Source of the DNA: a virus
Virus record (IMG/VR): IMGVR_UViG_3300049027_000140
Coordinates: 34,116-98,115 of that record
DNA length: 64,000 nt
Strand: one strand, 5' to 3'
Shown here: one piece after another, positions 10,497 to 60,957 of the stretch
Layout of the letters: every line of letters begins with the position of its first letter
How positions within the stretch are numbered: position 1 is the stretch's first letter
The notes under the pieces: generated by a model
What the model was told of the DNA's origin: nothing
The model's input: the letters and a program-made list of their open reading frames with translations, nothing else
The model's database searches: none
Program-made: the position numbers and the translations under genes

Positions 10497-11065
10497 CGAC
10501 CGATCTCCTCCCCGAGCTCCGCTCCCTCCTCGCCGCGCAGCCGCCCGGCTCTGGTGCCCACGACACGCTGGAGAGAGCCGTCGCTGAGATCGAGCGCCTC
10601 CGCTCCCGCCGTAGCTTCCAGGAGCAGGTAGCCGAGTTCCACCGCGCGCTGGACTTCCCGGTGCGGGAGACGCCGACGGTGCCCGGGGACGACGAGGTGC
10701 GGCTGCGGGCGCGGCTCATCGCTGAAGAGGCCTTCGAGGTGCTAGCGGCGATGTTTCCGAAGGAGCGCTGGATCTCGTGGTACCGCGGCGTGCGCGAGGT
10801 CATCGATCGGGCGCACGTCGACGTGTACCTCCCCGCGCTGGCCCACGAGCTCGCCGATCTCCACTACGTCACGAGCGGCACGGCGGTGCAACTCGGGATC
10901 GGCGAGGGCGCCGTGCTGGCCGAGGTCCACCGCGCCAACTGCGAGAAGCGCGGAGGCGGGAAGGATGCAGGGGGCAAGGCGCTGCGCCCCGCGAACTGGC
11001 GCCCGGCCGACGTTGCCGCCGTGCTGCGCGCGCAGGGGTGGGACGGCGGCGAGGAACCGCGATGA
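10493..11065 (+). CDS. MazG-like/PRA-PH nucleotide pyrophosphohydrolase
   Basis: QVAEFH, LRARLIAEE, HELADLHYV, EVHRAN..K, GK.LRP..W motifs. Confidence 0.85.
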   Translation: MTTDLLPELRSLLAAQPPGSGAHDTLERAVAEIERLRSRRSFQEQVAEFHRALDFPVRETPTVPGDDEVRLRARLIAEEAFEVLAAMFPKERWISWYRGVREVIDRAHVDVYLPALAHELADLHYVTSGTAVQLGIGEGAVLAEVHRANCEKRGGGKDAGGKALRPANWRPADVAAVLRAQGWDGGEEPR

Positions 11066-11330
11066 GCGAGCCCCGTTGTTCTTTCTGCGGCGTCACCCCG
11101 TCCTTCCCGCATCGCCGCCGCCCGTTCGTCTGGCAGGACGTCGCTGGCCGGCTGGTCTGCGACGAGGACTGCGCTGGGCTGGAGCGGGCGCGGCAGCCGG
11201 CTCAGCCGGTGCTGCTGGAGTACGCCGAGGTGGACGGGTGGTGGGGTCTACGGGGTGGCGTCGAGTACGTCGGCCCGTTCGAGAGCCGGGAGCGTCTACA
11301 GGACGTCATCGCGTGGTGAGGAGCAAGGAC

Positions 11331-11687
11331 ATGACCGAGCAACAGCGGATCGAGGCGACGGAGGCAGCGCTGCGGGCGGCGTGCGTGGAGGCGCGGGAGC
11401 AGGGGCTCGTGCTGGTGCGGGAGTCGCCCGGCGTGACGGTGGCCGGCGTCTTCGTCGGCTGCTGCGCGTGGACCGCGCTCGGCCTGACCGCGGACGCAGA
11501 GGCGGAGCTTCCGGAGGTCGACGCGCCCGAGTATGACGCCATCGAGCACGGCTGGGACGGGGAGCGCGCCATCGCCGAGCGCGACGGGTTGCCCATGCCC
11601 TGGTTCGGCATCGGCGCGAGGCTGGCGGCGGAGTTCCAGCCGGTGGCGGCGAGCGCGCTGGAGGCGGGGCGATGGCGAGGCCGCTGA
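11331..11687 (+). CDS. Hypothetical protein
   Basis: GAGGAG/AAGG RBS. Confidence 0.5.
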   Translation: MTEQQRIEATEAALRAACVEAREQGLVLVRESPGVTVAGVFVGCCAWTALGLTADAEAELPEVDAPEYDAIEHGWDGERAIAERDGLPMPWFGIGARLAAEFQPVAASALEAGRWRGR

Positions 11688-12037
11688 GCACGGACCCCGA
11701 TGTGCTGAGGATGAAGCCGATGGTGCTGCGCCTGCTGGAGGCGACGCCCGGAGCTTGGATGTCATACGGGGAGATCGACCGGCTGCTGCCGTCGTCCGGG
11801 CATAGGGAGTCCGCCGACGTACTCCTCGCCATCTGCGACCTCGCCGACGAGGCGAAGATCGAGCACCTGCGCCGCCCTAGCGACGGCGAGGACGTCTACC
11901 GTGCGCTGCGCCCGAACCCGGACGCGGACATGTCGAGGCGGGTGAGCGTGCTCGAGGCCGAACTCCAGAGCGCGCTGAAGCGGCTCGCGGATCTGGAGCG
12001 CGAGGTGGAGCACCTGACGACGCCGAGGAGCGGGTGA
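11672..12037 (+). CDS. Putative winged-helix protein with C-terminal coiled coil
   Basis: VL.LL..PG..MS..EI pattern. Confidence 0.45.
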   Translation: MARPLSTDPDVLRMKPMVLRLLEATPGAWMSYGEIDRLLPSSGHRESADVLLAICDLADEAKIEHLRRPSDGEDVYRALRPNPDADMSRRVSVLEAELQSALKRLADLEREVEHLTTPRSG

Positions 12038-26508: not shown

Positions 26509-27222
26509 TCAGCCCGGGAACGAGCGGTAGACGCCCGTCATCCGGTGGGCGTACTGGTCCGGCGTTTCGGTGAACCACACGAGTTCGCCGAGCTTGAGCG
26601 CGGCGTCGTATGGGCGGCCTGCGTCGAAGAGGGGCAGCGCGTCCTCGTAGGTCTTCGACATCACGCGCCAGTAGTCCGCCGAGCCGGCCTGCGGCGTCCC
26701 GTGCGCGCGAAACAGCATGTCGCGCCACTCCCACCGATCCGGGTTCTGCTCGATGCGCTCCTGGACGCGGATGACGTACACCGAGCCCTGCCAGCGGAAG
26801 CCAGTGATGTTGCCGAAGTTGTTGCAGTAGACGTGTTGCCCGCGGCCGTTCTCGAGCGCCACGTGGGCCCAGGCGACGGCGAGGCGCGACCGTGTCGGCT
26901 GCGCACCGAAGACCGCTTCGTGGCCCCGGGCGAGAGCGTTGGCGAGGCCGACCTCGGAGAGCGGCGTATGCACCTTCTCGACACGGCGGCGCTCGGCCTG
27001 CGGCGGCGTCGCCTCGTCGGCGAGCTCGGCTCGGGTCTGCGGCCCGACGATGCCGTCGGCGTGGAGGCCGCGGGCTGCCTGGAAGGCGCGCGCGGCGGCC
27101 TCGGTCTTGCGGCCGAAGATGCCGTCGCTCGGACCAGGGTCGTGCCCGCGGGCGCGGAGGAGGTCCTGGACGGCGGCGACGTCCGCGCCGGAGGAGTCAC
27201 GGCGAAGGATGCGCGGCCTCAC
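26509..27222 (-). CDS. Endolysin 2: PG-binding domain plus GH73/FlgJ-like glucosaminidase
   Basis: DGIFGRKT..FQ..GL.ADGIVGPQT; ALENG.G..NNFGNI; FRAH..; WFT....Y. Confidence 0.82.
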   Translation of the reverse strand: MRPRILRRDSSGADVAAVQDLLRARGHDPGPSDGIFGRKTEAAARAFQAARGLHADGIVGPQTRAELADEATPPQAERRRVEKVHTPLSEVGLANALARGHEAVFGAQPTRSRLAVAWAHVALENGRGQHVYCNNFGNITGFRWQGSVYVIRVQERIEQNPDRWEWRDMLFRAHGTPQAGSADYWRVMSKTYEDALPLFDAGRPYDAALKLGELVWFTETPDQYAHRMTGVYRSFPG

Positions 27223-28055
27223 GCGGCCCCCTTCTGCCGCAGCGCGCAGTTCGGCGGGCACGTCCGGTGGCACGCTCCCGCGGGCGCGCCCTCCTTCTCG
27301 GCCAACCGGTGGCGAGCCTTCTCGAGCGCCCCGTTGAGGCGCGTGCGGTCCGCCTCCACCGTGTCGATCGCGTAGAGCAGATCCCGGAACTCGGCCTCGT
27401 GGTGCTCGTGCGGGACCTCGAGACGAGCCTGGATCACACGGGCCCACGTCTCCCCGTCGTGTGTCGCGTGCAGGTGCGCGGTCAGCGCGAGGACGACGGA
27501 CTCGAGCGCGGCTACCTCGCGAGAGACACGGCGGGTCAATGCGTCGAAGCTGCGACCCCCGCGCTTGAACGAGATGGCCGCCGGGAAGAAGTCCCGGATG
27601 TCGCGCTCGGGAATCCGCGTAGCCCTGACCGTCGGCGTGCGGCCGGGTCCCGTGCGGACGAGACCGAACATCGCCTCGATCTCCCACAGCCCGAAGTCCT
27701 CGGTGTGCGAGATGCACACCCGATCGAAGCGCTCGGTGAAGCGCGCGGCCTCCTGAAGACCCGTTGCGATCTTGACCACCGCGTCGCCCAGAAACCGCCA
27801 CTCCCTGAACTGGGCCATGTACTGGCCAGGCACCTCGCCGTCGTAGAGGTCGTGGCTGATCTGGACGAGTTCAGCCCGATCCCCCTCTGTGGCAGCGATC
27901 ATGATGGCACGCCGCCCGGGGTGCTCGATGCGCCAGAAGGCGGCGCGAACGAGGATCTCCCGCTTCCGACGGCTGCGCTCGCCTTCGAGCATGAGGCATT
28001 CCTCGTCCCCCTCCACGAAGCGCGCCTCGAAGCTCTCGAGCGTGGCGTCGGTCAT
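27219..28055 (-). CDS. Degenerate Terminase_6-like ATPase-domain protein with helical C-terminus
   Basis: Motif order of a terminase ATPase (EHPG.RAI..T, S.DLY, W.F, FD, VRAT..P) with Walker A/B degraded; coupled to both endolysins. Confidence 0.6.
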   Translation of the reverse strand: MTDATLESFEARFVEGDEECLMLEGERSRRKREILVRAAFWRIEHPGRRAIMIAATEGDRAELVQISHDLYDGEVPGQYMAQFREWRFLGDAVVKIATGLQEAARFTERFDRVCISHTEDFGLWEIEAMFGLVRTGPGRTPTVRATRIPERDIRDFFPAAISFKRGGRSFDALTRRVSREVAALESVVLALTAHLHATHDGETWARVIQARLEVPHEHHEAEFRDLLYAIDTVEADRTRLNGALEKARHRLAEKEGAPAGACHRTCPPNCALRQKGAA

Positions 28056-29470
28056 CCGTCGAGCCATCCAGCGCCGCGGAATTTCGGGTCCCGGAGATCA
28101 CGATCCATCTCGGCCACGCGGTCACCCTTCGCTCCGCTGTTGCCCTCGACCGTTTTGACCTTCGTGCCGCTGACGGTCCGGCGCTTGATGCCGACGTGGC
28201 CGCGCCAATCGTCGCGCGTCGTGCGGTCCCAGAATATGAGCATCCCGTCGCGGAGTTTGAGCGGGTCCTTGAGCAGATCGTCGGCGTCGATGAAGCGCCC
28301 GGCGCGCCGGAACTGCGCCTCGAGCGTCTTCGCGCCCGCGCTCCCGATGACGGGCGCCACGGTACCAATCGCCTCTGCCGCGTCGAGGATCCACGAACTC
28401 GCCGTGACGGAGCACCAGTCAGCAGGCGGCTCGATGTCGAAGCGGCGGAGATATTGCCCGATGCGCTCGCCGTCGTTGGGCCGCTCCTCGCAGACGCCGG
28501 CCTCGAGGTCGGCCACGGCGCGCGCGAGCGCGGCGGCCGCGAGTCCATCGGGCGGCGCCGCCGGCTGCGGCCGAGGCCGCACCATCTCCGCGGCGGCCCG
28601 CGTCTTCGGCCCGACCACACCGTCGGCCTTGAGGTGTGCGTCGCCCTGGAACTCCTTCGTGGCGCGCTCGACCAGCGGCCCGAACGCGCCATCAGGCGCG
28701 CCGGGGTCGTAGCCCAGGGCGATCAGGCGCTCCTGCCAGGCGAGAACGTCGGGCCCCTTCGCGCCGCGCTTGAGCGCCCGCGGCGGCTCGCGCTCGGTCG
28801 AGGGTGGCTCCGGCGTGTCGCGGCTCTCGGTCGGCGCTGCGCCCCCGCTCGCCATGGCGTCCGCCGCGAACGTGGGCCCCCACCCATCGCGCGCGGCGAC
28901 GTGCTCGGCCTTGTCGTCTGTCGCGACGTTGTGCGCGCGCACGAGAAAGCGCCCGCCCTGCCCACCGGCGAGCTTCAGGACCTCCTCGGCGACCTTCGTC
29001 GTGCTCGCTACGTTGCCGTAGGTCCGGACGTCCGTGTGCCCGATCCAGAGCGTCGAGCGCCCCGCCTTCGCCTCACGCGCCCAGTCGACCAGCCACTGCA
29101 CGCCCGCGTCGCTCGCGGTGTTGTCGCGGTCCAGCGTCGTGTGCCCGCCGTCGAGCAGCACGAGGCCGGCGAGCTCGGCGCGGTCGGCCGGCCGCATGGC
29201 GCGTGCGAGGGCGTAGGAGCCCGACCAGCAGACGAGCCACGTCGAGGCGTAGCCCTGCCGCGGCGGCTTGTACTTCGCGAGAAGGCCGGGTAGCACGCGG
29301 CCGTTCTGGAGGCAGGCGTGGGCCAGCGCGTCGTAGGCGGCGCTCATGCCGGCGTACGGCGAGCGGATCGGCACGACGTCCACGTCGAGACCACGAGCCG
29401 CGGCGGCAGCGCCGAACATGGGCGCGACGTCCGGCGTGGCGTGCGCGAGGAGGATGAGGTGGTGGCTCAC
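28052..29470 (-). CDS. Endolysin 1: alpha/beta-hydrolase-like domain, PG-binding domain and CHAP amidase
   Basis: LVCWSGSY..GLVLLDGGH; DGAFGP..FQ..L.ADGVVGPKT; DWCSVTASSW..GHVGI..TVEGN. Confidence 0.82.
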   Translation of the reverse strand: MSHHLILLAHATPDVAPMFGAAAAARGLDVDVVPIRSPYAGMSAAYDALAHACLQNGRVLPGLLAKYKPPRQGYASTWLVCWSGSYALARAMRPADRAELAGLVLLDGGHTTLDRDNTASDAGVQWLVDWAREAKAGRSTLWIGHTDVRTYGNVASTTKVAEEVLKLAGGQGGRFLVRAHNVATDDKAEHVAARDGWGPTFAADAMASGGAAPTESRDTPEPPSTEREPPRALKRGAKGPDVLAWQERLIALGYDPGAPDGAFGPLVERATKEFQGDAHLKADGVVGPKTRAAAEMVRPRPQPAAPPDGLAAAALARAVADLEAGVCEERPNDGERIGQYLRRFDIEPPADWCSVTASSWILDAAEAIGTVAPVIGSAGAKTLEAQFRRAGRFIDADDLLKDPLKLRDGMLIFWDRTTRDDWRGHVGIKRRTVSGTKVKTVEGNSGAKGDRVAEMDRDLRDPKFRGAGWLDG

Positions 29471-29802
29471 GGGGTGGCTCTTGGCGGCGGGATGGTCAGC
29501 GCGTCCGGCTCGGTCGGGTCGGGGTCCGGCGGCTCCTCGCCACGCAGGGCGGTGCCAGGGAGCGGCCGCGAGGGAGCGCTCGCTCCCGGCGTAGCTCGGC
29601 TGAGCCGCTCGTCGATGCCGGCGTGGCCCCGCGCCGTGATGTCGGCGTCGGCGCGCTTGGGGAAGTTGTCCGTCCTGCGCGGCGTGGGCGTGGCCGGTTT
29701 CGGGGTCGGCTTGGCGGCCACGCGGTTCACGAGGAAGGCGCCGATCGCGGCGACAGCGACCTCGGCGAGGAGCGTGCCCAGTTTGTCCCAGGGGAACTTC
29801 AC
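29467..29802 (-). CDS. Small membrane-anchored Pro-rich protein (lysis cassette)
   Basis: N-terminal hydrophobic helix; GTGA coupling. Confidence 0.5.
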   Translation of the reverse strand: MKFPWDKLGTLLAEVAVAAIGAFLVNRVAAKPTPKPATPTPRRTDNFPKRADADITARGHAGIDERLSRATPGASAPSRPLPGTALRGEEPPDPDPTEPDALTIPPPRATP

Positions 29803-30305
29803 GAGCAGGCCTCCATTGCGCCCTGGTTGGGCGTGATGGCGGCTTGCCGCGGCGCTGGCGCCCGCGGCTGCCCGAGCGTCTCGATGGCGCGCCAGAGGTC
29901 CTCGCTCGCGATCGCGAGGCGGACGACGGCCTGCCCGAGCACCAGCGCGTTGGGCCGGCGCCCTGCTGCGACGGCGGCGCGCGCGGTCTCCGCGGTGGCC
30001 TTCGCGACGAAATAGGCGGCCTTGATCGCGTCGTAGGCGTCCCAGGCTGGCAGGTAGCGGGCGTGGAGTTCGGCGATCTGGCGGTGGCCCGTCGCGGCAT
30101 CCGGCGCGGTCGCCTCGATCCGCTCGCGCTCGGCGTCGTGCATCGCCTTGAGCACGCGGTGCCCCTCGGTGATGGCCACGGCGGCGGCGTCCAGTGCGTC
30201 GTCCACGTCGGCGAAGGCGTCGGCGGTCTGCGCCTGGCTCTGGCTGCCGGCGCACCCCGAGAGCAGCGCCAGCGCGAACACGGCGAGCAGGACGAGCGCC
30301 TTCAC
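29799..30305 (-). CDS. Lipoprotein, spanin candidate
   Basis: MKALVLLAVFALALLSGC lipobox; helical body; within lysis cassette. Confidence 0.65.
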   Translation of the reverse strand: MKALVLLAVFALALLSGCAGSQSQAQTADAFADVDDALDAAAVAITEGHRVLKAMHDAERERIEATAPDAATGHRQIAELHARYLPAWDAYDAIKAAYFVAKATAETARAAVAAGRRPNALVLGQAVVRLAIASEDLWRAIETLGQPRAPAPRQAAITPNQGAMEACS

Positions 30306-51565: not shown

Positions 51566-52249
51566 TCAGAGCCGGCGGAAGGCGCGCGGGTGGGCGTCCA
51601 CGTCGCGGCTGCGGAACTCGCCGGCCCGGTTGGGCTTCCAGCTCCGGGCGGCGGCGCCCTCCACGTCGAAGCCAGCCGCCTCGACGTTGTGTCGCGTGAC
51701 GGCCCAGACGTAGCCGAGCCGGGCGCGCCGCGGGGGCTCGAAGCCTTCGGCGACGGGCGCGTCGACCTTCGGCTCCGGCACGGGCGGCCTGAACTCGCGG
51801 TCGAACTCCTCGTTCTCGCCCTGCGGCGGGTAGTCGCCCGGGTCGTGGATCCACCGGTCGCCGGTGATGTGCTGCGTCTGGATCGGCCAGTTGCGGCCGA
51901 GCGCGGGGATCCAGAGCAGCGCCTGCGTCCCCTCCTCGCGGATCTCCCGCACCTCGGCGCGCACCGAGAGGTTGCCCTCGAAGTGCTCGCAGCGGAGGCG
52001 ATCGCCCACCGCGAGGCCGGGAGGCCCGTGCGGCACCTCGGCCGCCGTGGGACCGATGAGGGGCGGGCTGCTCGGGGGCAGCGCCTCGGTGGCGGCGTCG
52101 GGGGCGCCCGCCATCTCCCCCGCCGTCGGCTCCTCGAACGGCGCATCGCCGTCCGCGCCGTCATCGAACGCGTCGCCGAGGAGATCGGCGCCGCCGGTCT
52201 CGGAGGCCGAGGGTTGCCCGACGCCTCCCCTGCGATGACGGCGGCTCAT
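51566..52249 (-). CDS. Hypothetical acidic protein after capsid gene
   Basis: TGATG coupling to capsid gene. Confidence 0.55.
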   Translation of the reverse strand: MSRRHRRGGVGQPSASETGGADLLGDAFDDGADGDAPFEEPTAGEMAGAPDAATEALPPSSPPLIGPTAAEVPHGPPGLAVGDRLRCEHFEGNLSVRAEVREIREEGTQALLWIPALGRNWPIQTQHITGDRWIHDPGDYPPQGENEEFDREFRPPVPEPKVDAPVAEGFEPPRRARLGYVWAVTRHNVEAAGFDVEGAAARSWKPNRAGEFRSRDVDAHPRAFRRL

Positions 52250-53403
52250 CAGATCGGGGTGTTGATGAGGAAGGCGGTGTCGGCCGCGACGATCTTGCGA
52301 TCCTCGAAGTGGGACCGCTTGTAGGTCCAGCTACCGATCGGACCCTCCTTCGGGTCGAACCAGAGCTGCTGGAAGACGCCGTTGACGAAGCCGGGGGCGG
52401 TCGCGGCGGACGCCCCCGTGCCGGTCCAGCGGAAGGTGTAGCCGAGGCTCGCGTTGCGCTGCATCGGCGCATCCGACACGTGCGCGATGACGAAGGCGTT
52501 CCCCCAGATCCGCTCGTAGTCGGCCGTCTGGCCGATGTTCGCCGTGTCGGTGCGGGCGTCCGAGACGAGGAGGCCGTCGAGGCCGGTGATCTCGAGGAAC
52601 GCCGCCGGGCTCACGGCCCCGCGCTCGTTCATGCCGAGCATGCCCAGCAGGCCGGTGTTCAGGGCGATCTGATTCCAGACCTCGAGGCTGGTCGCCGCGA
52701 CGAGCCGCGTGTTGCCGCGCCCGGGCCACATCGCCGCCTTCGCGGTGAGGATGTTCGCCAGGATCGTGGCGGTGTCGGTGTTCCACTTATCGTCGCCGGT
52801 CAGCGTCATGACGTTGCTGGCGCTGTAGTTGTCCGGGTCGGTGACCATCTCGGCGATCTCGCGCTCGCGGTTGAGCGCAAGGTCGTGGTTCACGTCCTCC
52901 TGGAGCTGGAGGAGTTCGTTGAGCGGCTGCGGCGAGTTCAGGATGACCTGCGCCTCGACCACGCCCTTGAGCTGGTCGTCCTTGACCGAGTAGGTCGAGG
53001 TCGAGAGACGCCGGTTGATCTCGTTCGCGTCGCCGCGCTGGCCGCGCCCCTTGGTCTTCGGCTTCTGGAGGCGGTCGCGCCGCTCCCACACGTTGAACTG
53101 CGCGCTCATCGCCTCGACCGGGACGACGGGGAAGAGCTCGAGCCCGATGAGGTCCTCGGCGGCGTAGGCGATCGACAGGTTGTTGAGCACCGGGACGCCC
53201 TGCATGTCGCCGGGCGACATTTCCCTCTTCTTGAGGGCCATGTCGGTGCTCCGCTGGACGAGCGCCTTCATGCGCGGATCGCCGGCCTGGGCATCCTCGA
53301 GCATGCTCGTGAAGCCCATCTTCTTCGCTGCGTACTTGCTCGCGAGGCTGGTGCCGTCGCGGTTCGGGCCCTTGCCGGCCTTGTAGTGGACGATCGTGGA
53401 CAT
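52249..53403 (-). CDS. Major capsid protein
   Basis: LNNLSIAY..IG.ELFPVVPV, RE.EIA, IWGN, GYTF; GGAGG RBS. Confidence 0.88.
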   Translation of the reverse strand: MSTIVHYKAGKGPNRDGTSLASKYAAKKMGFTSMLEDAQAGDPRMKALVQRSTDMALKKREMSPGDMQGVPVLNNLSIAYAAEDLIGLELFPVVPVEAMSAQFNVWERRDRLQKPKTKGRGQRGDANEINRRLSTSTYSVKDDQLKGVVEAQVILNSPQPLNELLQLQEDVNHDLALNREREIAEMVTDPDNYSASNVMTLTGDDKWNTDTATILANILTAKAAMWPGRGNTRLVAATSLEVWNQIALNTGLLGMLGMNERGAVSPAAFLEITGLDGLLVSDARTDTANIGQTADYERIWGNAFVIAHVSDAPMQRNASLGYTFRWTGTGASAATAPGFVNGVFQQLWFDPKEGPIGSWTYKRSHFEDRKIVAADTAFLINTPI

Positions 53404-53494: not shown

Positions 53495-53935
53495 TCAGGC
53501 GGTGGAGAGAGACGAGGGCGCGATACCGATCGCCACGAAGTCGCCGGCCACGCCGGTCGCGAGGAAGATCCCGGGGCTGTGGACGCGGGCGGCGGTGCCG
53601 TGGGCGGCCGCGTTGGTGAGGCCGTCGGTCGTGGCCACGGCGCGCGAGCCGCGCGTGGCGCCGCCGGTGCCGACGCGCGCCCACTGCACGACGCTGAAGA
53701 TATGCAGCGCGTCGAACTGCTCGCCCGCGGCGTAGGACGTGCCGGGGTCGCCCTTGGCGATGGCGAACACGACGGACGTGGCCGCCGTCGCCTCGCGCGC
53801 GTTGACGTAATCCTCGCTGCCGTTCGTGTCGGTGGCGTCGAGGACAATGGGCATGCCGGCTCGGACGGTCTGCCCGGCGGGCACGGTGTACCGGCCCCAG
53901 TCGGCGAAGTTGAGCCTGCGCTCCGGAGTATGCAT
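53495..53935 (-). CDS. Capsid decoration/cement protein (DUF2190-like)
   Basis: Small Gly/Ala/Thr-rich protein between protease and capsid genes; G.AT.G..V, AGD.V.I. Confidence 0.7.
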   Translation of the reverse strand: MHTPERRLNFADWGRYTVPAGQTVRAGMPIVLDATDTNGSEDYVNAREATAATSVVFAIAKGDPGTSYAAGEQFDALHIFSVVQWARVGTGGATRGSRAVATTDGLTNAAAHGTAARVHSPGIFLATGVAGDFVAIGIAPSSLSTA

Positions 53936-54015
53936 GGAGGTCTCCTGCACGGGGCGCAGCGGCCCCGTTCACGTGATCTGGTTGTGGTCGGGAGGTGCGA
54001 GCGCCGGGCGGCGCG

Positions 54016-55434
54016 TCAGCGGGTGAGCGAAGTGGCGGTGTTGTTCGCGGCGCGGGACTTCTGGAGCTCCGCGGTGCGCTTCTCCATCTCGGCGAACAGC
54101 GCGGCATCGTCGCCGACGCTGCTCAGCTGCTGCACCGGCGGCTTTTCGTCGGGCTTGGAGGTGTCCGGCGTGCGCTCCACGACGTCGCTCCGGAGGGCCC
54201 CGGCGGCGACGCCCTTCTGGCGGGTCTCGGCGACGTCGGCGGCGTAGCCATCGGGGTCGGTCGCGGCGCGCTTCGCGAGGCGCTGCGCCTGGGCCGGCGA
54301 GAGCTGCCACGGGTCGAGCCCCGTGAGCGGCCCGAGCTCCAGCGCGGCCTTGGCCGAGATCGCCTCGTCCGCCTTCTTCTTCTCGTCGTCGGCGCGCTTC
54401 GCGGCCGCGTCGCGCTCCTGGGTGAGCGTCGTCTTCGCGCTCTCCGCCGCGGTCGCGCGCTCCTCGGCGCTCTTCGCGCGGGTCTCCGCCTCGGCCTTGG
54501 CCTGCTCGGCGGCCTTGGCGCGCTCCTCGGATGCCTTCGCGCGGGCGGAGAGGTCCTTGTGCTCCTGGGCGAGCTGCACGACGCCCGGCGCCTCGAGCAC
54601 CATCACGCCCTTGCACTCCTCGCACTCGTGCGTGATCACGCCGCGGCGCCCGAGGTCCTCGTGCTGCTCCTGGGTGAGCTTCCTGATCTTCATGACGTTC
54701 TTCCTCATGCCGGCAGCCGCCGGGTTGTTGTTTTGACCCCGCTGGCTGCGGGCGGTCGGGATGGAGTGCACCGCGTTCTTGGCGCGCTCCTCCAGCATCT
54801 TGGACATGCGCTCTTCGGTCGACTCGATCACCAGCGCATCGGGGTTCGCCCCCATGGGGCAGATCGAGAACTCGTAGAGTTCGTTCTGGTCGCAGACCGT
54901 GCGCTCGACGCCGTTGATCGTCTCGCGAGAGACCTTGTGCGGCTTGAAGCCGACGCTGCCCGCCTTGAGCATCCCCTCAACGAGCATGTCGAAGACGATG
55001 ACCGCGAACGGGTTCTTGACGCTGAACTGCGGCGTGATCAGGAGCTGGTCGTTCTCGACGACGTGGCGCACCGACCGCCCGACGGGCAGCGTGGGGACCG
55101 CCCAGTCGTTGTTGTGCGCCCACAGGATCACGGGGTTCCTGTCGAACCGGGTGAAGATCCAGTTCTGGCGCAGCACCTCGCCGTAGGAGTCGACGGCCTC
55201 GGTGGACGCTACGTAGTCGACCTGCCGCTCTGCCTCGCGCACCGCTCGCACGTGGACCGCCCGCATGTGCAGGCCATCCGGTCCCTTCGCGGGATCTCGT
55301 CTCTTCGCGGCGCCCGCGTCGGAGGCGACGGAGAGGAGGTCGGCTCGGGTGTCGTCGTCGAGCCCTCCCGCGTTGAGGGTGAAGACGGCGATGGCGCGCG
55401 CGAGGGCGTCGAGTCTGTGCTCATGGGTCTTCAT
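54016..55434 (-). CDS. HK97-type prohead protease fused to coiled-coil scaffold
   Basis: ASTE.VDSYGE, NPVILWAH, LKAGSVGF, ELYEFS.CP.GANPDA. Confidence 0.9.
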   Translation of the reverse strand: MKTHEHRLDALARAIAVFTLNAGGLDDDTRADLLSVASDAGAAKRRDPAKGPDGLHMRAVHVRAVREAERQVDYVASTEAVDSYGEVLRQNWIFTRFDRNPVILWAHNNDWAVPTLPVGRSVRHVVENDQLLITPQFSVKNPFAVIVFDMLVEGMLKAGSVGFKPHKVSRETINGVERTVCDQNELYEFSICPMGANPDALVIESTEERMSKMLEERAKNAVHSIPTARSQRGQNNNPAAAGMRKNVMKIRKLTQEQHEDLGRRGVITHECEECKGVMVLEAPGVVQLAQEHKDLSARAKASEERAKAAEQAKAEAETRAKSAEERATAAESAKTTLTQERDAAAKRADDEKKKADEAISAKAALELGPLTGLDPWQLSPAQAQRLAKRAATDPDGYAADVAETRQKGVAAGALRSDVVERTPDTSKPDEKPPVQQLSSVGDDAALFAEMEKRTAELQKSRAANNTATSLTR

Positions 55435-55474
55435 GGTGGCTCATCGCCCGGCGCGCGGCTGGGCTGGTTGTGGT

Positions 55475-56170
55475 CTACGCGGCGCGGCCGCTCTCGAGCG
55501 GGAAGAGGCCGAGCACGCGCGAGCGGTAGAGAGGGTGGCTCGCGTAGTCCGGTCCCCATTCGCGCCGCTTCTCATCGATCCACGCGCGCGTCGCGAGGCC
55601 GTGGATGACCCTCTCGCCGGTCTGCGCGTTCGGTGTGTCCTCGCTGTTGAGGCGCATGGTCGACCAGCGCGGCTCGTGCGCGCCGTGGTGGATCTGGTGC
55701 CAGAGCGTGCCGGGCTCGGCCTTGGCGAGGCCGAACATGATGGCGCGAGCGCCGGCGTCCGTTGCCTGGTCGATCGCGCGCAGAGTCTCGTCGCTCAGAT
55801 GGTCCGCGTTGTCGACGACGATCAGCTCGGTCCTGCCGACCACTTCGAGCGGATCAGGTCTCCACCATGAGAACTCCGACGAGCAGAAATAGATCTTGCT
55901 CTCCGCGGCCCGACCCGGCAGCAGGTTCAGTACGTCGTTCACCAGAACGATGCCTGGTGACACCAGGTGCACACGTGACCATCGCGTCGCGTAGAACCAG
56001 AGCGCCGCCGCTGCTGCGGCGGTCGTCATGCCGGTCTTGTGACCGGACACGACTGCGAGCCGCGGCGCCTCGGCAGCCGCGCGCAGGACGTCCTCCTGCC
56101 CACGCCAGAGCGTGAGCCCGAGGTCCTCGCGGGCGAACTCGCTGGGAGACACGTTCGACTGGTCGCTCAT
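55475..56170 (-). CDS. Inactive TerL ATPase-domain paralogue (no nuclease domain)
   Basis: Aligns by eye to the N-terminal half of TerL (58160-59794); Walker A GHKTGMT, Walker B VVDNA. Confidence 0.85.
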   Translation of the reverse strand: MSDQSNVSPSEFAREDLGLTLWRGQEDVLRAAAEAPRLAVVSGHKTGMTTAAAAAALWFYATRWSRVHLVSPGIVLVNDVLNLLPGRAAESKIYFCSSEFSWWRPDPLEVVGRTELIVVDNADHLSDETLRAIDQATDAGARAIMFGLAKAEPGTLWHQIHHGAHEPRWSTMRLNSEDTPNAQTGERVIHGLATRAWIDEKRREWGPDYASHPLYRSRVLGLFPLESGRAA

Positions 56171-57696
56171 GACATCTCCGCGGCTCTCCGCCGCTCGCGG
56201 CGCCGCTGCGCGTCCTCGATGGCGCGCGCCTCAGCTTCGGCCTCCGCGTCGAGGTGGTCGGCGAGGTCGTCGCCTTCGAGCATCCGGACCCGTCCGGGCT
56301 CCGGGAGCGCGATGCGGGCGCCCTCGCTGGCGATCCGCATGCGAGCGATGCGCGCGCGGTCCGCCTCGGCGGGCACGAGCGCCGGGACCGGGTTGCCGAT
56401 CACGGCCTCGCCCGTCTTCGGCGTCGGCATGCCGTAGAGCTTGTAGATCCAGGGGATCGACACCGGCAGCCCGAGCCTCACGAGCCGCTCGATGGCCTGC
56501 GCGAGCGCCGCGAGGTCCACGTCGTCGCCGCCGGCGAGGTGGATGCTGGGCACTGCCGCGTCGGCGCCGAAGTTCAGCCGGACCGCAGCGGCCACGAGCT
56601 GGCGCTGGAGCACCGAGGCGATCGCGCGCGCAGCAGCGTTGCGCCGGTCGTTCTGCACCTTCCGGTGCACCTGAGCCTGCGACAGGCTCGAGCCGTCCTC
56701 CGTGGTCATCGTCTGACCGAGGACAGCCTTCGACATCTCCGCCGCGAGGAACGCCGCCAGGGAGCCGTGGGCGCCTCCGCCGTTGCTCCCCGTCTGACCG
56801 CCATTCGACTTGGCGAACACGACGTCCAGCGCCACCGTGTCCGGCAGCATCGTCGCCCCGTTGGTGACGAGGTACTGGAGCGCGTTCTCGAGCGCCGCGA
56901 TGTCCTTGTCGCTGGCGAACTCGTCCTTCTTGTACTTGCCGATCCGCCAGGGCTTCCACGCCAGCTCGGCGAGGGCGAGCCAGTCCTTGACCGTCCAGTT
57001 GCGGAACAGCGCCGCCCACGTGAGCGGCCGGATGAGGCCCTCCCGGGAGGCGATCGCGCCTGTCACGCGCGGCCTGAACTGCACGAAGCGGTTCGGGTAC
57101 TTCGTCGGCAGGTGGATGCCGCTGGTAGCCCCGAACCCGCTCACGTCGAAGTGGAGCTCCGACGTGGCCTGGTCGTAGAGGAAGCGCCGCGGCATGATCG
57201 GCTCAGCGCCGATCGGCACGAGTTCGAGGCCGCGCTTCTCCCAGATGACCTCGGCGACCGCGTGGCTGTAGGTGTAGCCACCGGCCAGGTGCGAGATCAG
57301 CGTGGAGAGGTCGTAGGCCCTGTCGCTCTCGACGCGGCTGCCGAAGCTGCGGAGGAAGGACTCGACCCAGGCGGCGATCTTGAGGTCCCGGCGCCGCGGG
57401 CTCGCCGGGACGACCTGCACCTCAAGGAGCGCGAGGGCGAGTTCGAAGGTGCTGAGCACCGCGTGGAGGTGGCAGTCCTTCTGCCGGCTTTCGTCGAACA
57501 GGTCGACGAGCTGCCAGAGGTGCCCCTGGTCCGCCGCGGCGAAGATGTTGCTGACGGCGCGGGGGGTCAGCTCGCCGCCGATGCGGCCCGGGTTAAACCA
57601 GAGCGGCAGTTCGTCGACGACGCCGACGCGCTCCGTCATCGCTCGCCGCCCGACGGCACGGGCGAGCATGCCGCTCAGGGAGGCGAAGATGCCCAC
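56167..57696 (-). CDS. Portal protein (Mu gp29/DUF935 family)
   Basis: A..G.L..L.DL, KD.HL, W..LAE...KP.RIGKY, EMSKAVLGQT.TT, A.VH..V..D. Confidence 0.92.
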   Translation of the reverse strand: MGIFASLSGMLARAVGRRAMTERVGVVDELPLWFNPGRIGGELTPRAVSNIFAAADQGHLWQLVDLFDESRQKDCHLHAVLSTFELALALLEVQVVPASPRRRDLKIAAWVESFLRSFGSRVESDRAYDLSTLISHLAGGYTYSHAVAEVIWEKRGLELVPIGAEPIMPRRFLYDQATSELHFDVSGFGATSGIHLPTKYPNRFVQFRPRVTGAIASREGLIRPLTWAALFRNWTVKDWLALAELAWKPWRIGKYKKDEFASDKDIAALENALQYLVTNGATMLPDTVALDVVFAKSNGGQTGSNGGGAHGSLAAFLAAEMSKAVLGQTMTTEDGSSLSQAQVHRKVQNDRRNAAARAIASVLQRQLVAAAVRLNFGADAAVPSIHLAGGDDVDLAALAQAIERLVRLGLPVSIPWIYKLYGMPTPKTGEAVIGNPVPALVPAEADRARIARMRIASEGARIALPEPGRVRMLEGDDLADHLDAEAEAEARAIEDAQRRRERRRAAEMS

Positions 57697-57725
57697 GGGA
57701 GATCAGGAGGCCGGAACGGCCTCGA

Positions 57726-58163
57726 TCACGACCTGACGGTGTAGAACAGGTTCACCTTGACGCTGCCCGCGGTCGCGGTGTTCAGGTCCTCGCTGCTCGT
57801 GATGACGACCTTGTACGTCTCGTTCGCCAGCGGGCGCATCAGGACCGCCTCGACGCCCGCGGTCCCCGTCTTCGGGAACCCGGTCTGCCCGGCCGCGACG
57901 TTGACCGTCGTAACGATCGAGTCGTCGTCGCTGTCGCTCCCGACCTTGAGCACGTAGGTAGCGGTCGCGCCGTCGGAGAAGCCCGTGAAGCTCTCGCCGA
58001 TCGTGTGGCCGAGGTAGCGCGCGTCATCGGGCAGGACGGCGCCAAGGTCGACCTCGTGGCTCGTCACGCCCTCCGCCAGGTCGGCGAAGTCCGTGAAGGC
58101 GATCGTGACGGTGCGCTTCTGGAATGCGGCGCTGGGAACGCCTGCGGGGGTCATGCCTCTCAT
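57726..58163 (-). CDS. Jelly-roll-like virion (cement) protein
   Basis: LP..A.., F.DG..A..LKVG, TAGSV.V.L.Y pattern. Confidence 0.6.
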   Translation of the reverse strand: MRGMTPAGVPSAAFQKRTVTIAFTDFADLAEGVTSHEVDLGAVLPDDARYLGHTIGESFTGFSDGATATYVLKVGSDSDDDSIVTTVNVAAGQTGFPKTGTAGVEAVLMRPLANETYKVVITSSEDLNTATAGSVKVNLFYTVRS

Positions 58164-59794
58164 CCGAATCCTCTTCCGGGCTGGTCCGCGTAGCGGAGCG
58201 GTGTCTGCTTCTTCGGCAGGTGGACGGTGCGGCGCTTGACCACGCCGTCGAACACGGCGAGCCCGGCCCCGTCGCCATGGTCGGGGGAGCGGCCGATGCG
58301 CTTCTTGAGCTTGTCCTTGCTCTCGATCTGGACGCGGCCTACGCCGTCCAGGAAGTACTTCGGGGCGAGCAGGTCATCCTGGAGCCGCTGGTCGGGCTCG
58401 AAGCCACCGCCGGCGCGGATCCAACTCCGCACGCCCAGGCCGATCTCGGCGCGGAGGTTGACGTACTCGTCCTCGTTGCCGTCGGTCGGGCTCTCGCCGG
58501 AGTTCACCGCGATCACCTCGACGCCGCGCTTGTGCTTCAAAAAGTCGTAGGCGGAGGCGCCGATGCCGATCGCGTCGATGAGCACCAGCGGCCGCTCGAC
58601 GCCGACCACGTGCTCCTCGATGCAGGTCATCACCTCGTCGGCCACTTCCTGCCCGTCGCAGAACTTCAGCACGCGAGGCTGGAAGAGCCGTAGGCCGCGC
58701 CGCGGGTAGATGACCGTGAGATCGTCGCCGTACCTGGCGGGGTCGACGCCGATCTGGAGCCGCTCTGTCGGCTCGCGCCAGGCGCCGCGAACCACCGCGA
58801 GTTCGCCTGGGGTGCGGATGATGCCGCGCCAGTTCTTGGGGTCGTCGAGAAGCTCTCGTCGCCCGAGCAGCTGCGCGGCGAACGTGTACCAGACGCGGTG
58901 GGCCCGCTCGATGTCCTTGAGCGAGACGACCTGGTCGGCTGCCTGGAGCGGAAACTCGCCGAGGACGCGCACGCGGTACCGCGGGTCGTTCTCGTAGTCG
59001 GGGCCCCACTCCTTGCGCTTCTCTTCGATCCAGCCGAGCGTGGCCAGGCCGGGGAGGACCTTCTTGCCCGCCCGGACGTTGGGCGTCTCCTCGCTGGAGA
59101 AGCTGAAGCAGATGTAGAGGTCGCGCTTCGAGTTGAAGGCGTCGTAGAACTCGCCCGACGTCTGCGTCGGGTTGCTGAACATCAGCACGGAGGCGCCGCC
59201 GGCTCGGTTGCCGTCGATCGCCTCGAAGATCGCCGCGCCGACGCCGCTCGCCTCGTCGATGAGGTAGAGGATGTTCTCGCCGGAGATGCCGGCCATTCGC
59301 TCGGGCTGCTTCGTGCTGAAGCCGAGGACCTCGCTCTGCTGCCCTGACTCAAGGTGCTGGAGCCCGAGCTCGGGCACCTCGTGCAGGCGACCACCGAGAC
59401 CACCGAGGACCTTGAGCCGATCGGCTGCGAGCCCCCAGAGCTTGCGGATCTCCCTCCACAAGATGCTGCGGATCTGCCGCGCCGTCGGAGCCGTCATGAT
59501 GACGCGGGCGGCGGGTCGCGTGACCCACCACCACAGCGCCACGACGGCGATCACGAGGCTCTTACCGATCTTGTGGCCGCTCTTGACCGCGACGCGGACC
59601 GGCCCGCGGGAGCTCCGCGCGATGGCCTTGCAGATCCGCCGCTGGGCTCGCCAGAGCTGGACGCCGAACACGTCCCAGGCGAACCGGACCGGGTCGTTGT
59701 ACCAGCGCGCGATGAGCTGCGCGGCCAGCTCGCGGGCTTCGCCGCTGTCGCCCGGGGCCTCGGAGGCTCCGGCGTGGTCTGCTGCGGCCTGCAT
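58160..59794 (-). CDS. terL: Terminase large subunit
   Basis: Walker A SGHKIGKS, Walker B YLIDEASG, SNP motif, nuclease IGVDPARYGDD, IDAIGIGA, SPDHGD. Confidence 0.95.
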   Translation of the reverse strand: MQAAADHAGASEAPGDSGEARELAAQLIARWYNDPVRFAWDVFGVQLWRAQRRICKAIARSSRGPVRVAVKSGHKIGKSLVIAVVALWWWVTRPAARVIMTAPTARQIRSILWREIRKLWGLAADRLKVLGGLGGRLHEVPELGLQHLESGQQSEVLGFSTKQPERMAGISGENILYLIDEASGVGAAIFEAIDGNRAGGASVLMFSNPTQTSGEFYDAFNSKRDLYICFSFSSEETPNVRAGKKVLPGLATLGWIEEKRKEWGPDYENDPRYRVRVLGEFPLQAADQVVSLKDIERAHRVWYTFAAQLLGRRELLDDPKNWRGIIRTPGELAVVRGAWREPTERLQIGVDPARYGDDLTVIYPRRGLRLFQPRVLKFCDGQEVADEVMTCIEEHVVGVERPLVLIDAIGIGASAYDFLKHKRGVEVIAVNSGESPTDGNEDEYVNLRAEIGLGVRSWIRAGGGFEPDQRLQDDLLAPKYFLDGVGRVQIESKDKLKKRIGRSPDHGDGAGLAVFDGVVKRRTVHLPKKQTPLRYADQPGRGFG

Positions 59795-60651
59795 CAGCGC
59801 CTCGGCGGCTGCCAGATGAACGGCCGCTTGGGCGCCGGGCCTGCCATGGCGGGCTCGGGAGCGCGCGGCGTGGGGGAAGGTTGCGGCGCCGGTGGGGTCT
59901 CCTCGACCGGCCCCTCCACCACCTCGCGGTCGGGCTCGCCGTCCGGTTCGCCATCGGCCCAGCGCGGTGGGGGCCTCAGGTACTCGTCCTCGTCCTCCTC
60001 GCCGTCGGGCTCGTCGCCCTCGATGGCGGGCGGAGGGCTGTTGCCCACGAGCGCCTTGAGGCCGTCGGCGGGGGTCTCCTTCTTCTGGCCCGGCAGCCCG
60101 CCGCCGGTGACCATGTTCCGGATCTGGACGAGCTTGCCGAGCTCCCTGGCGAGCCCTGCCATCAGGGTCGACTGCGGGAACGTCATCTCGTCGGGATTGC
60201 CACGGACGGTGCGCCCGACCGCCTGGACCGTCTGAAATAGCTCGAGCGCCAGCTCGTCCAGCCCGGAGAGGTCCGGCTTCCAGACGTGGACCTCGGTCGC
60301 GGGCTCCGACGCGTCGGGCCTGCTGTCGGGCCTCGGCGCCGCCTGTCGGGCCTGCTGTCGGGGCTGGCCGGGCCGGAGCGGGGTGACCGTCGCGACGCGG
60401 GCAGAGGGCGGTGGGGGCTTCTGGGCGGGCTCCGGCGCGCCAGCCCGGTGCAGCTTCCAGTGCCGGCCGAGGGCGTCGTGGCGGATGTGCTCGCCGTGCT
60501 CCGCCTCCAGCCAGACCGAGATCCCCCGCGCCGAGTCCCCGCGCGCCAGCCGCGCCTCGATCTCCGCCCGCCACGGCGACGTGCAGGTCTTGCAGTCGTG
60601 CCTGAACTTGGCGGGGCTGTTGTCGGGGCTGGCGGGCCTGTCGGCGGCCAT
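59794..60651 (-). CDS. Putative terminase small subunit
   Basis: CKTC.SP.R.EIE..L.RG.S.R.I..ALGRH HTH; TGATG coupled to terL. Confidence 0.7.
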   Translation of the reverse strand: MAADRPASPDNSPAKFRHDCKTCTSPWRAEIEARLARGDSARGISVWLEAEHGEHIRHDALGRHWKLHRAGAPEPAQKPPPPSARVATVTPLRPGQPRQQARQAAPRPDSRPDASEPATEVHVWKPDLSGLDELALELFQTVQAVGRTVRGNPDEMTFPQSTLMAGLARELGKLVQIRNMVTGGGLPGQKKETPADGLKALVGNSPPPAIEGDEPDGEEDEDEYLRPPPRWADGEPDGEPDREVVEGPVEETPPAPQPSPTPRAPEPAMAGPAPKRPFIWQPPRR

Positions 60652-60684
60652 GGCGGGCCTGTGCTGCGGCGGATGCCCGACGGC

Positions 60685-60957
60685 CTACGGGGTCGCGATG
60701 GGCTTGGCGGCGGTCTCGCTGTTGGGTGTCGGGGTGGTCGTGTCGGGTCTGGCGGGCCCGCTGTCGGGGCGGGCGCCGGAGTGCTCGGGGCAGAGGCAGC
60801 GGGCGGTCCGGCTGTGGCCGTCCGTCTCGACGCGCCAGTCGATGCTCTGGAGCGCCGCGACGAGATCACCGTAGGTCTCGCCGAGGCCGTCGAAGCCGGC
60901 GCTCGTGGCGGTGCTGCAGTCGGGCGCATCGCAGGTGATGCAGATGTGGATGGGCAT
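60685..60957 (-). CDS. Small zinc-binding protein
   Basis: ITCD..DC..W..CLCPEH. Confidence 0.6.
   Translation of the reverse strand: MPIHICITCDAPDCSTATSAGFDGLGETYGDLVAALQSIDWRVETDGHSRTARCLCPEHSGARPDSGPARPDTTTPTPNSETAAKPIATP

Follow-up and report, generated by a model that had tools for sequence, protein, structure and literature searches.

The window analyzed in this study is the right-hand 64 kb (64,000 nucleotides) of a 98,115-bp IMG/VR virus record, which is rated 78% complete and belongs to an uncultured phage with a GC content of 71%. Among genomes, the nearest counterparts of its large terminase subunit (TerL) and portal belong to prophages in Polyangiaceae, Sorangium, and Chondromyces (loci L017, L019, L020, L022, L023, and L026; portal matches P0244 and P0257). 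These prophage relatives, together with the high GC content, suggest a myxobacterial host. Therefore, the phage probably infects a myxobacterium.

The head and packaging genes of this phage form a block in which all genes lie on the minus strand. A 285-aa ORF (59794 to 60651), with no Pfam or PHROG match and a GC3 of 0.93, ends at the TerL start and may encode the small terminase. The full-length TerL gene occupies positions 58160 to 59794 (phrog_2, E = 1e-30) and encodes intact GHKIGKS, IDEAS, and FSNPT motifs as well as a nuclease domain. The longest ORF call for TerL (804 aa) starts from a GTG at 60574 and overlaps the 285-aa ORF; the ATG at 59794, which overlaps the stop codon of that ORF as TGATG, is the likely start in its place. 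Between TerL and the portal lies a 145-aa ORF (57726 to 58163) without a Pfam or PHROG family, weak homologues of which are found 4 to 5 kb downstream of TerL in the Polyangiaceae prophage loci L017 and L023. The portal gene itself is of the Mu type (DUF935; 56167 to 57696; PF06074, E = 2e-65; phrog_113), and its stop codon overlaps the start of the 231-aa ORF (55475 to 56170, minus strand) with which this study is concerned. A prohead protease/scaffold gene (54016 to 55434; phrog_80 and phrog_11321, with a weak match to PF04586) follows 40 nt downstream. A 151-aa ORF is listed between this gene and the major head protein gene (52249 to 53403; phrog_1005, E = 3.5e-49), which closes the head module. 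Thus, the 231-aa gene sits between portal and protease, as a preliminary description of this DNA had placed it. When the phage record was searched for TerL-type genes, one full TerL and the 231-aa ORF were recovered.

The reading frame of the 231-aa ORF is intact. Its ATG overlaps the portal stop codon as ATGA, with GGAG 5 nt upstream. The preliminary description had taken the open frame and this coupling as arguments against a decaying pseudogene. The frame argument holds, and the ATGA is indeed present, but it is not special to this gene, as overlapping starts and stops are the rule in the operon (TGATG before TerL, ATGA after TerL, and ATGA between the portal and the 231-aa ORF). Since such overlaps are common here, the ATGA shows that the gene is integrated into the operon and says nothing specific about it. 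No promoter-like sites and no minus-strand terminator-like sites were found within 53900 to 60800. The GC3 of the ORF is 0.87 in frame versus 0.51 to 0.68 in the other frames, and that of the neighboring genes is 0.92 to 0.96.

The 231-aa ORF is a nuclease-less paralogue of the TerL ATPase domain

In BLASTP, the 231-aa protein matches the TerL of the same phage with an E value of 6e-33 and 32% identity, residues 9 to 227 aligning with TerL residues 27 to 277. The match covers the whole ATPase domain of TerL and ends at the nuclease boundary; the 231-aa protein stops four residues past the end of this alignment and lacks the C-terminal RNase H-like nuclease domain. The ORF also matches phrog_2 (terminase large subunit; E = 2e-5), and no Pfam family was found for it at E ≤ 0.01.

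The predicted structure agrees with this assignment. An AlphaFold2 model built from an alignment of 145 sequences reached a pLDDT of 87.7 and a pTM of 0.87, superseding a run on a two-sequence alignment (pLDDT 51). In a Foldseek search of the PDB with this model, the four best matches were to the ATPase domain of the P74-26 TerL (4znj and 4zni; TM 0.61 to 0.65), followed by the D6E, T4 gp17, HK97, and Sf6 terminases. Pairwise alignment and structure prediction thus bear out the earlier proposal that the ORF corresponds along its length to the ATPase part of TerL and stops where the nuclease would begin. The 231-aa ORF is confirmed as a real, nuclease-less paralogue of the TerL ATPase domain.

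Conservation relative to the phage's own TerL is unequal along the protein. It is highest in the lid and hinge-proximal segment (residues 168 to 224; 55499 to 55669, minus strand), where 31 of 57 residues are identical, versus 24 of 62, 9 of 48, and 11 of 50 elsewhere; the lid had already been singled out as the best-conserved part. This segment contains a helix-loop-helix with helices at residues 195 to 204 and 213 to 218.

A small family of ATPase-only copies

When 1.84 billion cluster representatives were searched exhaustively and without a profile, 1344 relatives were returned at E ≤ 0.001, and the best 150 of these 1344 are nearly all full-length ordinary TerLs. Among 178 fetched sequences, 10 are without the Walker A lysine or the Walker B glutamate. 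P0063 was rejected as a dead copy, as it is a full-length TerL in which only the lysine is missing. The 231-aa ORF and eight other clusters (50% identity) make up the nine sequences that we refer to as dead copies, and all of them end just after the lid. Five of these clusters are stand-alone proteins of 200 to 248 aa, namely P0002 (62% identical to the 231-aa protein), P0005, P0011, P0007, and P0065. The last is N-terminally partial; hence, Walker A is covered in seven of the eight other clusters. The remaining three (P0006, P0029, and P0072) carry the dead module at the C terminus of longer ORFs. A profile built from the dead family alone recovered no solved terminase in a PDB sequence search.

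The longer ORFs may be either true fusions or gene-calling artifacts. P0006 (560 aa) and P0029 (767 aa) have in common an N-terminal region of about 325 aa that is 66% identical between them and includes a short match to phrog_3954. The 700-aa N terminus of P0072 (971 aa) matches nothing searched; P0072 was considered as a portal fusion and dismissed, having no portal match. None of these three N-terminal parts has a counterpart in the present phage.

Several other members of the same TerL group have features of their own. P0075 (247 aa) is ATPase-only and keeps both the Walker A lysine and the Walker B glutamate; judged from its sequence, it could be a stand-alone form still capable of catalysis or, alternatively, a TerL that is truncated or split. 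In the TerLs P0048, P0087, P0111, and P0127, long insertions with HNS-type junction ends follow directly after the Walker A lysine and look like P-loop inteins. In the metagenome locus L005, about 1 kb (10846 to 11899) interrupts the TerL match.

The divergence between the 231-aa protein and P0002 is distributed unevenly. Identity amounts to 50 of 62 residues (81%) in the N-terminal part, 11 of 43 (26%) in the middle, 29 of 52 in the next part, and 47 of 57 (82%) in the lid. This unevenness argues for constraint on specific surfaces. Furthermore, some dead relatives are only 33 to 37% identical to the 231-aa protein and still have intact frames, which, together with the uneven divergence, argues for selection at the protein level. 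The preliminary description had named stops and frameshifts in homologues as the mark of decay; the frames are intact in the eight other clusters. These sequence comparisons argue for a selected pseudo-enzyme rather than a decaying copy. That the gene is a functionless remnant of a terminase duplication, on its way to decay, is barely credible to us. The GC3 slightly below that of the neighbors and the rarity of the family (see below) would fit such a remnant, but the frame is open here and in the other clusters even at 33 to 37% identity, one common domain boundary ends all copies, the divergence differs greatly between segments and leaves the lid invariant, and the fold is predicted with confidence.

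Motifs lost and kept

The three motif changes reported in the preliminary description, GHKIGKS to GHKTGMT, IDEA to VDNA, and SNP to GLA, are all present in the alignment. The Walker A remnant GHKTGMT (residues 43 to 49; 56024 to 56044, minus strand) has Met48 in place of the classical lysine and keeps the upstream Lys45. In the Walker B remnant IVVDNA (residues 117 to 122; 55805 to 55822, minus strand), the aspartate is kept and the catalytic glutamate is replaced by Asn121. The remnant of the coupling (C) motif, FGLA (residues 146 to 149; 55724 to 55735, minus strand), replaces FSNP/GNPT.

Losses and retentions across the family were counted against a reference set, the 32 positions at which 134 TerLs show a conservation of 85% or more. 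The classical Walker A lysine is found in 133 of 135 TerLs and in none of the eight dead copies that cover Walker A; the Walker B glutamate is found in 135 of 135 TerLs and in none of the nine dead copies. The coupling Asn148, present in 98% of TerLs, is likewise missing from all nine, the 231-aa ORF having Leu148-Ala149. The universally lost positions are thus K48 (8/8) and E121, G124, and N148 (9/9 each). The residues that replace them vary from copy to copy, with M, V, T, L, or G at the lysine position and N, Y, Q, R, or D at that of the glutamate, and this variety fits a loss of function and not a new, fixed chemistry. On the other side, K45, the P-loop T49, and the adenine-binding Q25 are kept in all eight copies covering them, the Walker B D120 is kept in eight of nine, and the ten TerL-conserved positions of the lid are all kept in nine of nine.

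In the TerL group of this phage, the classical lysine has another lysine three residues ahead of it (GHKxGKS). In the HK97 TerL, the lysine at the same spacing, K57, is essential, and lambda gpA has a lysine of this upstream type and is without the classical one (PMC9410871). Hence, in view of the retention of K45, T49, D120, and Q25 and of the upstream lysines of HK97 and lambda, the 231-aa protein may still bind ATP. As for hydrolysis, every change of the equivalent glutamate in lambda, Glu179, is lethal (PMC6379665). ATP hydrolysis by the 231-aa protein without this glutamate is, from its sequence, very unlikely. The earlier term "catalytically dead" can therefore be kept in part: the residues for hydrolysis are gone, which predicts a hydrolysis-incompetent protein, but a loss of ATP binding does not follow, K45, T49, D120, and Q25 being kept.

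These residues also bear on whether the 231-aa protein could still be an enzyme, that is, an ATPase or an ATP-dependent switch working through the upstream K45 in the manner of lambda gpA. The consistent retention of K45, T49, and Q25 and the near-consistent retention of D120, along with the HK97 and lambda precedents, speak for it; the absence of the catalytic glutamate from all nine copies, the lethality of the lambda changes, and the loss of the coupling motif in all copies speak against it. We consider it highly improbable. ATP binding without turnover is possible and would fit the explanation that we favor below, in which the protein acts as a non-catalytic mimic of TerL.

A further reduction is seen between strand 2 and Walker B. 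This segment measures 44 aa with four lysine or arginine residues in the 231-aa ORF versus a median of 65 aa with nine such residues in TerLs. By analogy with TerL, the DNA-gripping or trans-acting functions of this segment are probably gone.

Origin and distribution

The preliminary description had regarded the gene as a copy of the phage's own TerL. A recent copy is not what we find, because the own TerL is no closer to it than unrelated TerLs are: identity to the former is about 32 to 35%, and identity to the latter is up to 38%. The tree of ATPase domains also separates the two, with the 231-aa ORF joining P0002 and P0005 (SH-aLRT 97) and the own TerL joining P0016, P0017, and the dead copy P0065 (SH-aLRT 98). 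A recent self-duplication was therefore rejected on both the identities (35% to the own TerL versus up to 38% to others) and the grouping with dead copies. The best tree requires three changes of the "dead" label; a single clade for the nine dead copies was not rejected by the AU test (p = 0.13).

The almost equal distance of the 231-aa protein from its own TerL (about 32 to 35% identity) and from the other TerLs of the clade makes a discrimination between self and non-self conceivable. Ring ATPases are classically poisoned by subunits with mutated Walker motifs. On these grounds, the protein could be a weapon in conflicts between phages or between phage and satellite, a dominant-negative subunit that would poison the motors of rivals and spare the diverged motor of its own phage. 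We think this very unlikely. No co-resident element is known, the protein would be produced alongside its own TerL with a risk of self-poisoning, and, having lost the basic segment with its possible pore-lining or trans-acting role, it may be unable to join a functional ring at all.

The extra gene is rare, and its small family has members from uncultured phages only. A search for ATPase-only paralogues, proposed in the preliminary description, yielded the eight other clusters. Scans of metagenomes and genomes matched ordinary TerLs only, and of 9 viral or metagenome loci and 25 genome loci, not one has another copy within 10 kb of its TerL. No second TerL-like match was found in 50,697 cultured phage records. 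In 401 sampled genomes from the phylum of the Polyangiaceae metagenome-assembled genome that holds locus L017, only TerLs were found; an odd second match in one of these genomes (G199) proved to be an unrelated gene of the Terminase_6 type. Scans of IMG/VR with P0005, P0006, P0065, P0029, and the alignment of the dead family found nothing.

In two relatives with the same head module, L004 and L041, the portal is followed directly by the protease with no intervening gene. Thus, the 231-aa gene is an insertion at the portal-protease junction. Two of the other dead copies may also share a contig with a portal. An indirect link, based on equal contig sizes only, suggests that P0005 lies on the same 11,561-bp contig as a portal 74% identical to the present one. 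By the same kind of link, equal sizes only, P0029 appears to lie on one 117,917-bp contig with a portal 51% identical. If these contig links hold, the paralogue (46% identical) is evolving about twice as fast as the portal.

Discussion

Our best guess, and a tentative one, is that the 231-aa protein is a non-catalytic mimic of TerL at the packaging vertex, where it would modulate the docking or assembly of the motor. Its partner and its effect are our inference from what was observed here, namely the relationship to TerL, the fold, the missing motifs, the distribution of conserved positions, and the place in the operon. The gene would be expressed as part of the late head/packaging operon, immediately behind the portal gene. 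The protein has the TerL ATPase fold. It is without the nuclease domain, the classical lysine, the catalytic glutamate, and the coupling motif, and little is left of the basic segment that follows strand 2. The N-terminal adenine-pocket helix is kept, as is the P-loop backbone with its upstream lysine, and kept most strictly are the lid and the hinge-proximal helix-loop-helix. Such a protein could occupy the contacts of the TerL ATPase domain, either on the portal clip or on neighboring TerL subunits, and the docking or assembly of the motor would thereby be regulated. Guard, assembly factor, and brake are all possible roles for such a mimic.

The ATPase ring of T4 is turned toward the portal, the residues in contact with the portal are placed in a hinge-side helix-loop-helix, and packaging is inhibited by a peptide from this part of the protein (PMC9958956). 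The guess of a mimic at the vertex rests on this precedent, on the kept lid and helix-loop-helix, and on the position of the gene after the portal, to which it is coupled. Several observations weigh against a mimic at the vertex. For HK97 and D6E, contact with the portal has been ascribed to the C-terminal arm of TerL (PMC5727402), an arm that the 231-aa protein lacks. The retention of the lid may reflect the stability of the fold rather than an interface, the lid being the most conserved part of TerLs generally. Besides, the slightly low GC3 (0.87 versus 0.92 to 0.96) is listed against this reading, and the placement in the head module beside the portal is a neighborhood known from this phage alone.

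Terminases are among tailed phages the most conserved enzymes and are a main target of bacterial immune sensors. The 231-aa protein could accordingly face the host and not the motor: as an anti-defense mimic, it would take the place of TerL on Avs1-3 or Upx and leave these sensors inactive, or it would otherwise blunt the sensing of terminase. This we consider unlikely, and an immune-decoy role is possible but unsupported. It would be in keeping with the recurrence of stand-alone TerL ATPase-like proteins in unrelated phages (phage 186 CDS 1215-1961 and T4 vs.8; PMC13601566), and the authors of that report raise such a role for activators that are not terminases. Furthermore, Upx requires the ATPase domain only, and the catalytic aspartates are dispensable (PMC13601566). 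Lost catalysis on a retained fold is what a mimic would show, and the operon predicts that the gene is co-expressed with TerL late in infection. Nevertheless, recognition by SeAvs3 involves the nuclease domain as well as the residues of the active site and the ATP bound there; EcAvs2 touches the ATP of the terminase via a bridging ATP; and vs.8, the only ATPase-only paralogue that has been tested, is toxic with EcAvs2, which suggests that it triggers the sensor and does not block it (PMC13601566). The gene also lies in the head module, away from early or anti-defense genes. Since Avs3 and Avs2 read the active site and bound ATP, a simple decoy is not favored. A decoy is conceivable, more so for Upx-like sensors, in view of the need of Upx for the ATPase domain only and of the suggestion made by those authors.

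The window holds a second candidate of a related kind. A 282-aa ORF (27219 to 28067, minus strand) lies next to an endolysin gene (28052 to 30100). It has no Pfam or PHROG match, and HHalign against the present TerL group gave a probability of 1%. Its ESM Atlas model matches Terminase_6N-type TerLs with a TM of 0.56 over residues 10 to 244, with feature scores of 0.84 to 0.87 that fall below the 0.9 mark. On the strength of this model, it is possible that the ORF is a second TerL-like relic of a different lineage. One could go further and suppose that nuclease-less, eroded copies of the TerL ATPase are recurrent terminase mimics (in the present lineage, in phage 186, and in T4 vs.8) that share the task of interfering with Avs1-3 or Upx, and that this phage may carry two of them, the second being the candidate at 27219 to 28067. 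We regard this generalization as quite unlikely.

If the 231-aa protein proves to be a regulator of the motor, it would be a natural tool for studying what the surfaces of the ATPase do beyond catalysis, including portal docking, ring assembly, and control of the nuclease. Should it be directed at the host instead, it would represent a novel type of anti-defense protein. In both cases, the combination of catalytic loss with an untouched lid offers a testable handle, namely the lid and the hinge-proximal helix-loop-helix. This value is tempered by the paralogues of phage 186 and T4 (vs.8), which are already annotated or published, and by the small size of the family, known from uncultured phages only.

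Comparison with known systems

The TerL ATPase domain, as solved for P74-26 (4znj/4zni), D6E, T4 gp17, HK97, and Sf6, has the same fold as the 231-aa protein, whose homology to its own TerL is clear. Like TerL, the 231-aa protein keeps the adenine-binding glutamine, the P-loop glycines and threonine, the HK97-type lysine, the Walker B aspartate, and the lid. Unlike TerL, it has no nuclease domain, classical Walker A lysine, catalytic glutamate, or coupling Asn-Pro, and its segment after strand 2 is short and poor in basic residues.

In Mu-like head modules, the slot after the portal is filled by minor head proteins such as Mu gp30 (Phage_Mu_F) and SPP1 gp7. The 231-aa gene has the same position, after a Mu-type portal and before the protease/scaffold gene, with no relation to them in sequence or fold. 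Such a relation is excluded by the lack of a Pfam match and by the TerL ATPase fold.

A parallel in gene order is found in coliphage 186, where CDS 1215-1961 (NC_001317; 248 aa, annotated as "similar to Orf12") is an ATPase-only gene between TerL and the portal. As with the 231-aa ORF, its genome also has a full TerL and the portal gene is adjacent; the encoded protein is 37% identical to the ATPase domain of its own TerL. In contrast to the present gene, it lies upstream of the portal and not downstream, and its Walker B Asp-Glu is kept. BLASTP found no significant direct similarity between the two proteins (best E value 3.0). As each resembles its own TerL lineage and neither resembles the other directly, the 186 gene and the 231-aa gene arose independently. 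T4 vs.8, likened here by its description, is a stand-alone homologue of the terminase ATPase domain found in one phage group (Evans et al. 2026, PMC13601566). It differs from the 231-aa protein in that Walker A and Walker B are reported intact, in that it is toxic with EcAvs2, and in that its gene lies outside the head operon (PMC13601566). A search of the T4 record with gp17 did not recover vs.8.

Thus, proteins of this kind are already known from phage 186 and T4. What is new here is the occurrence of such a gene in another TerL lineage, its position downstream of a Mu-type portal, and the consistent loss of the hydrolysis and coupling residues.
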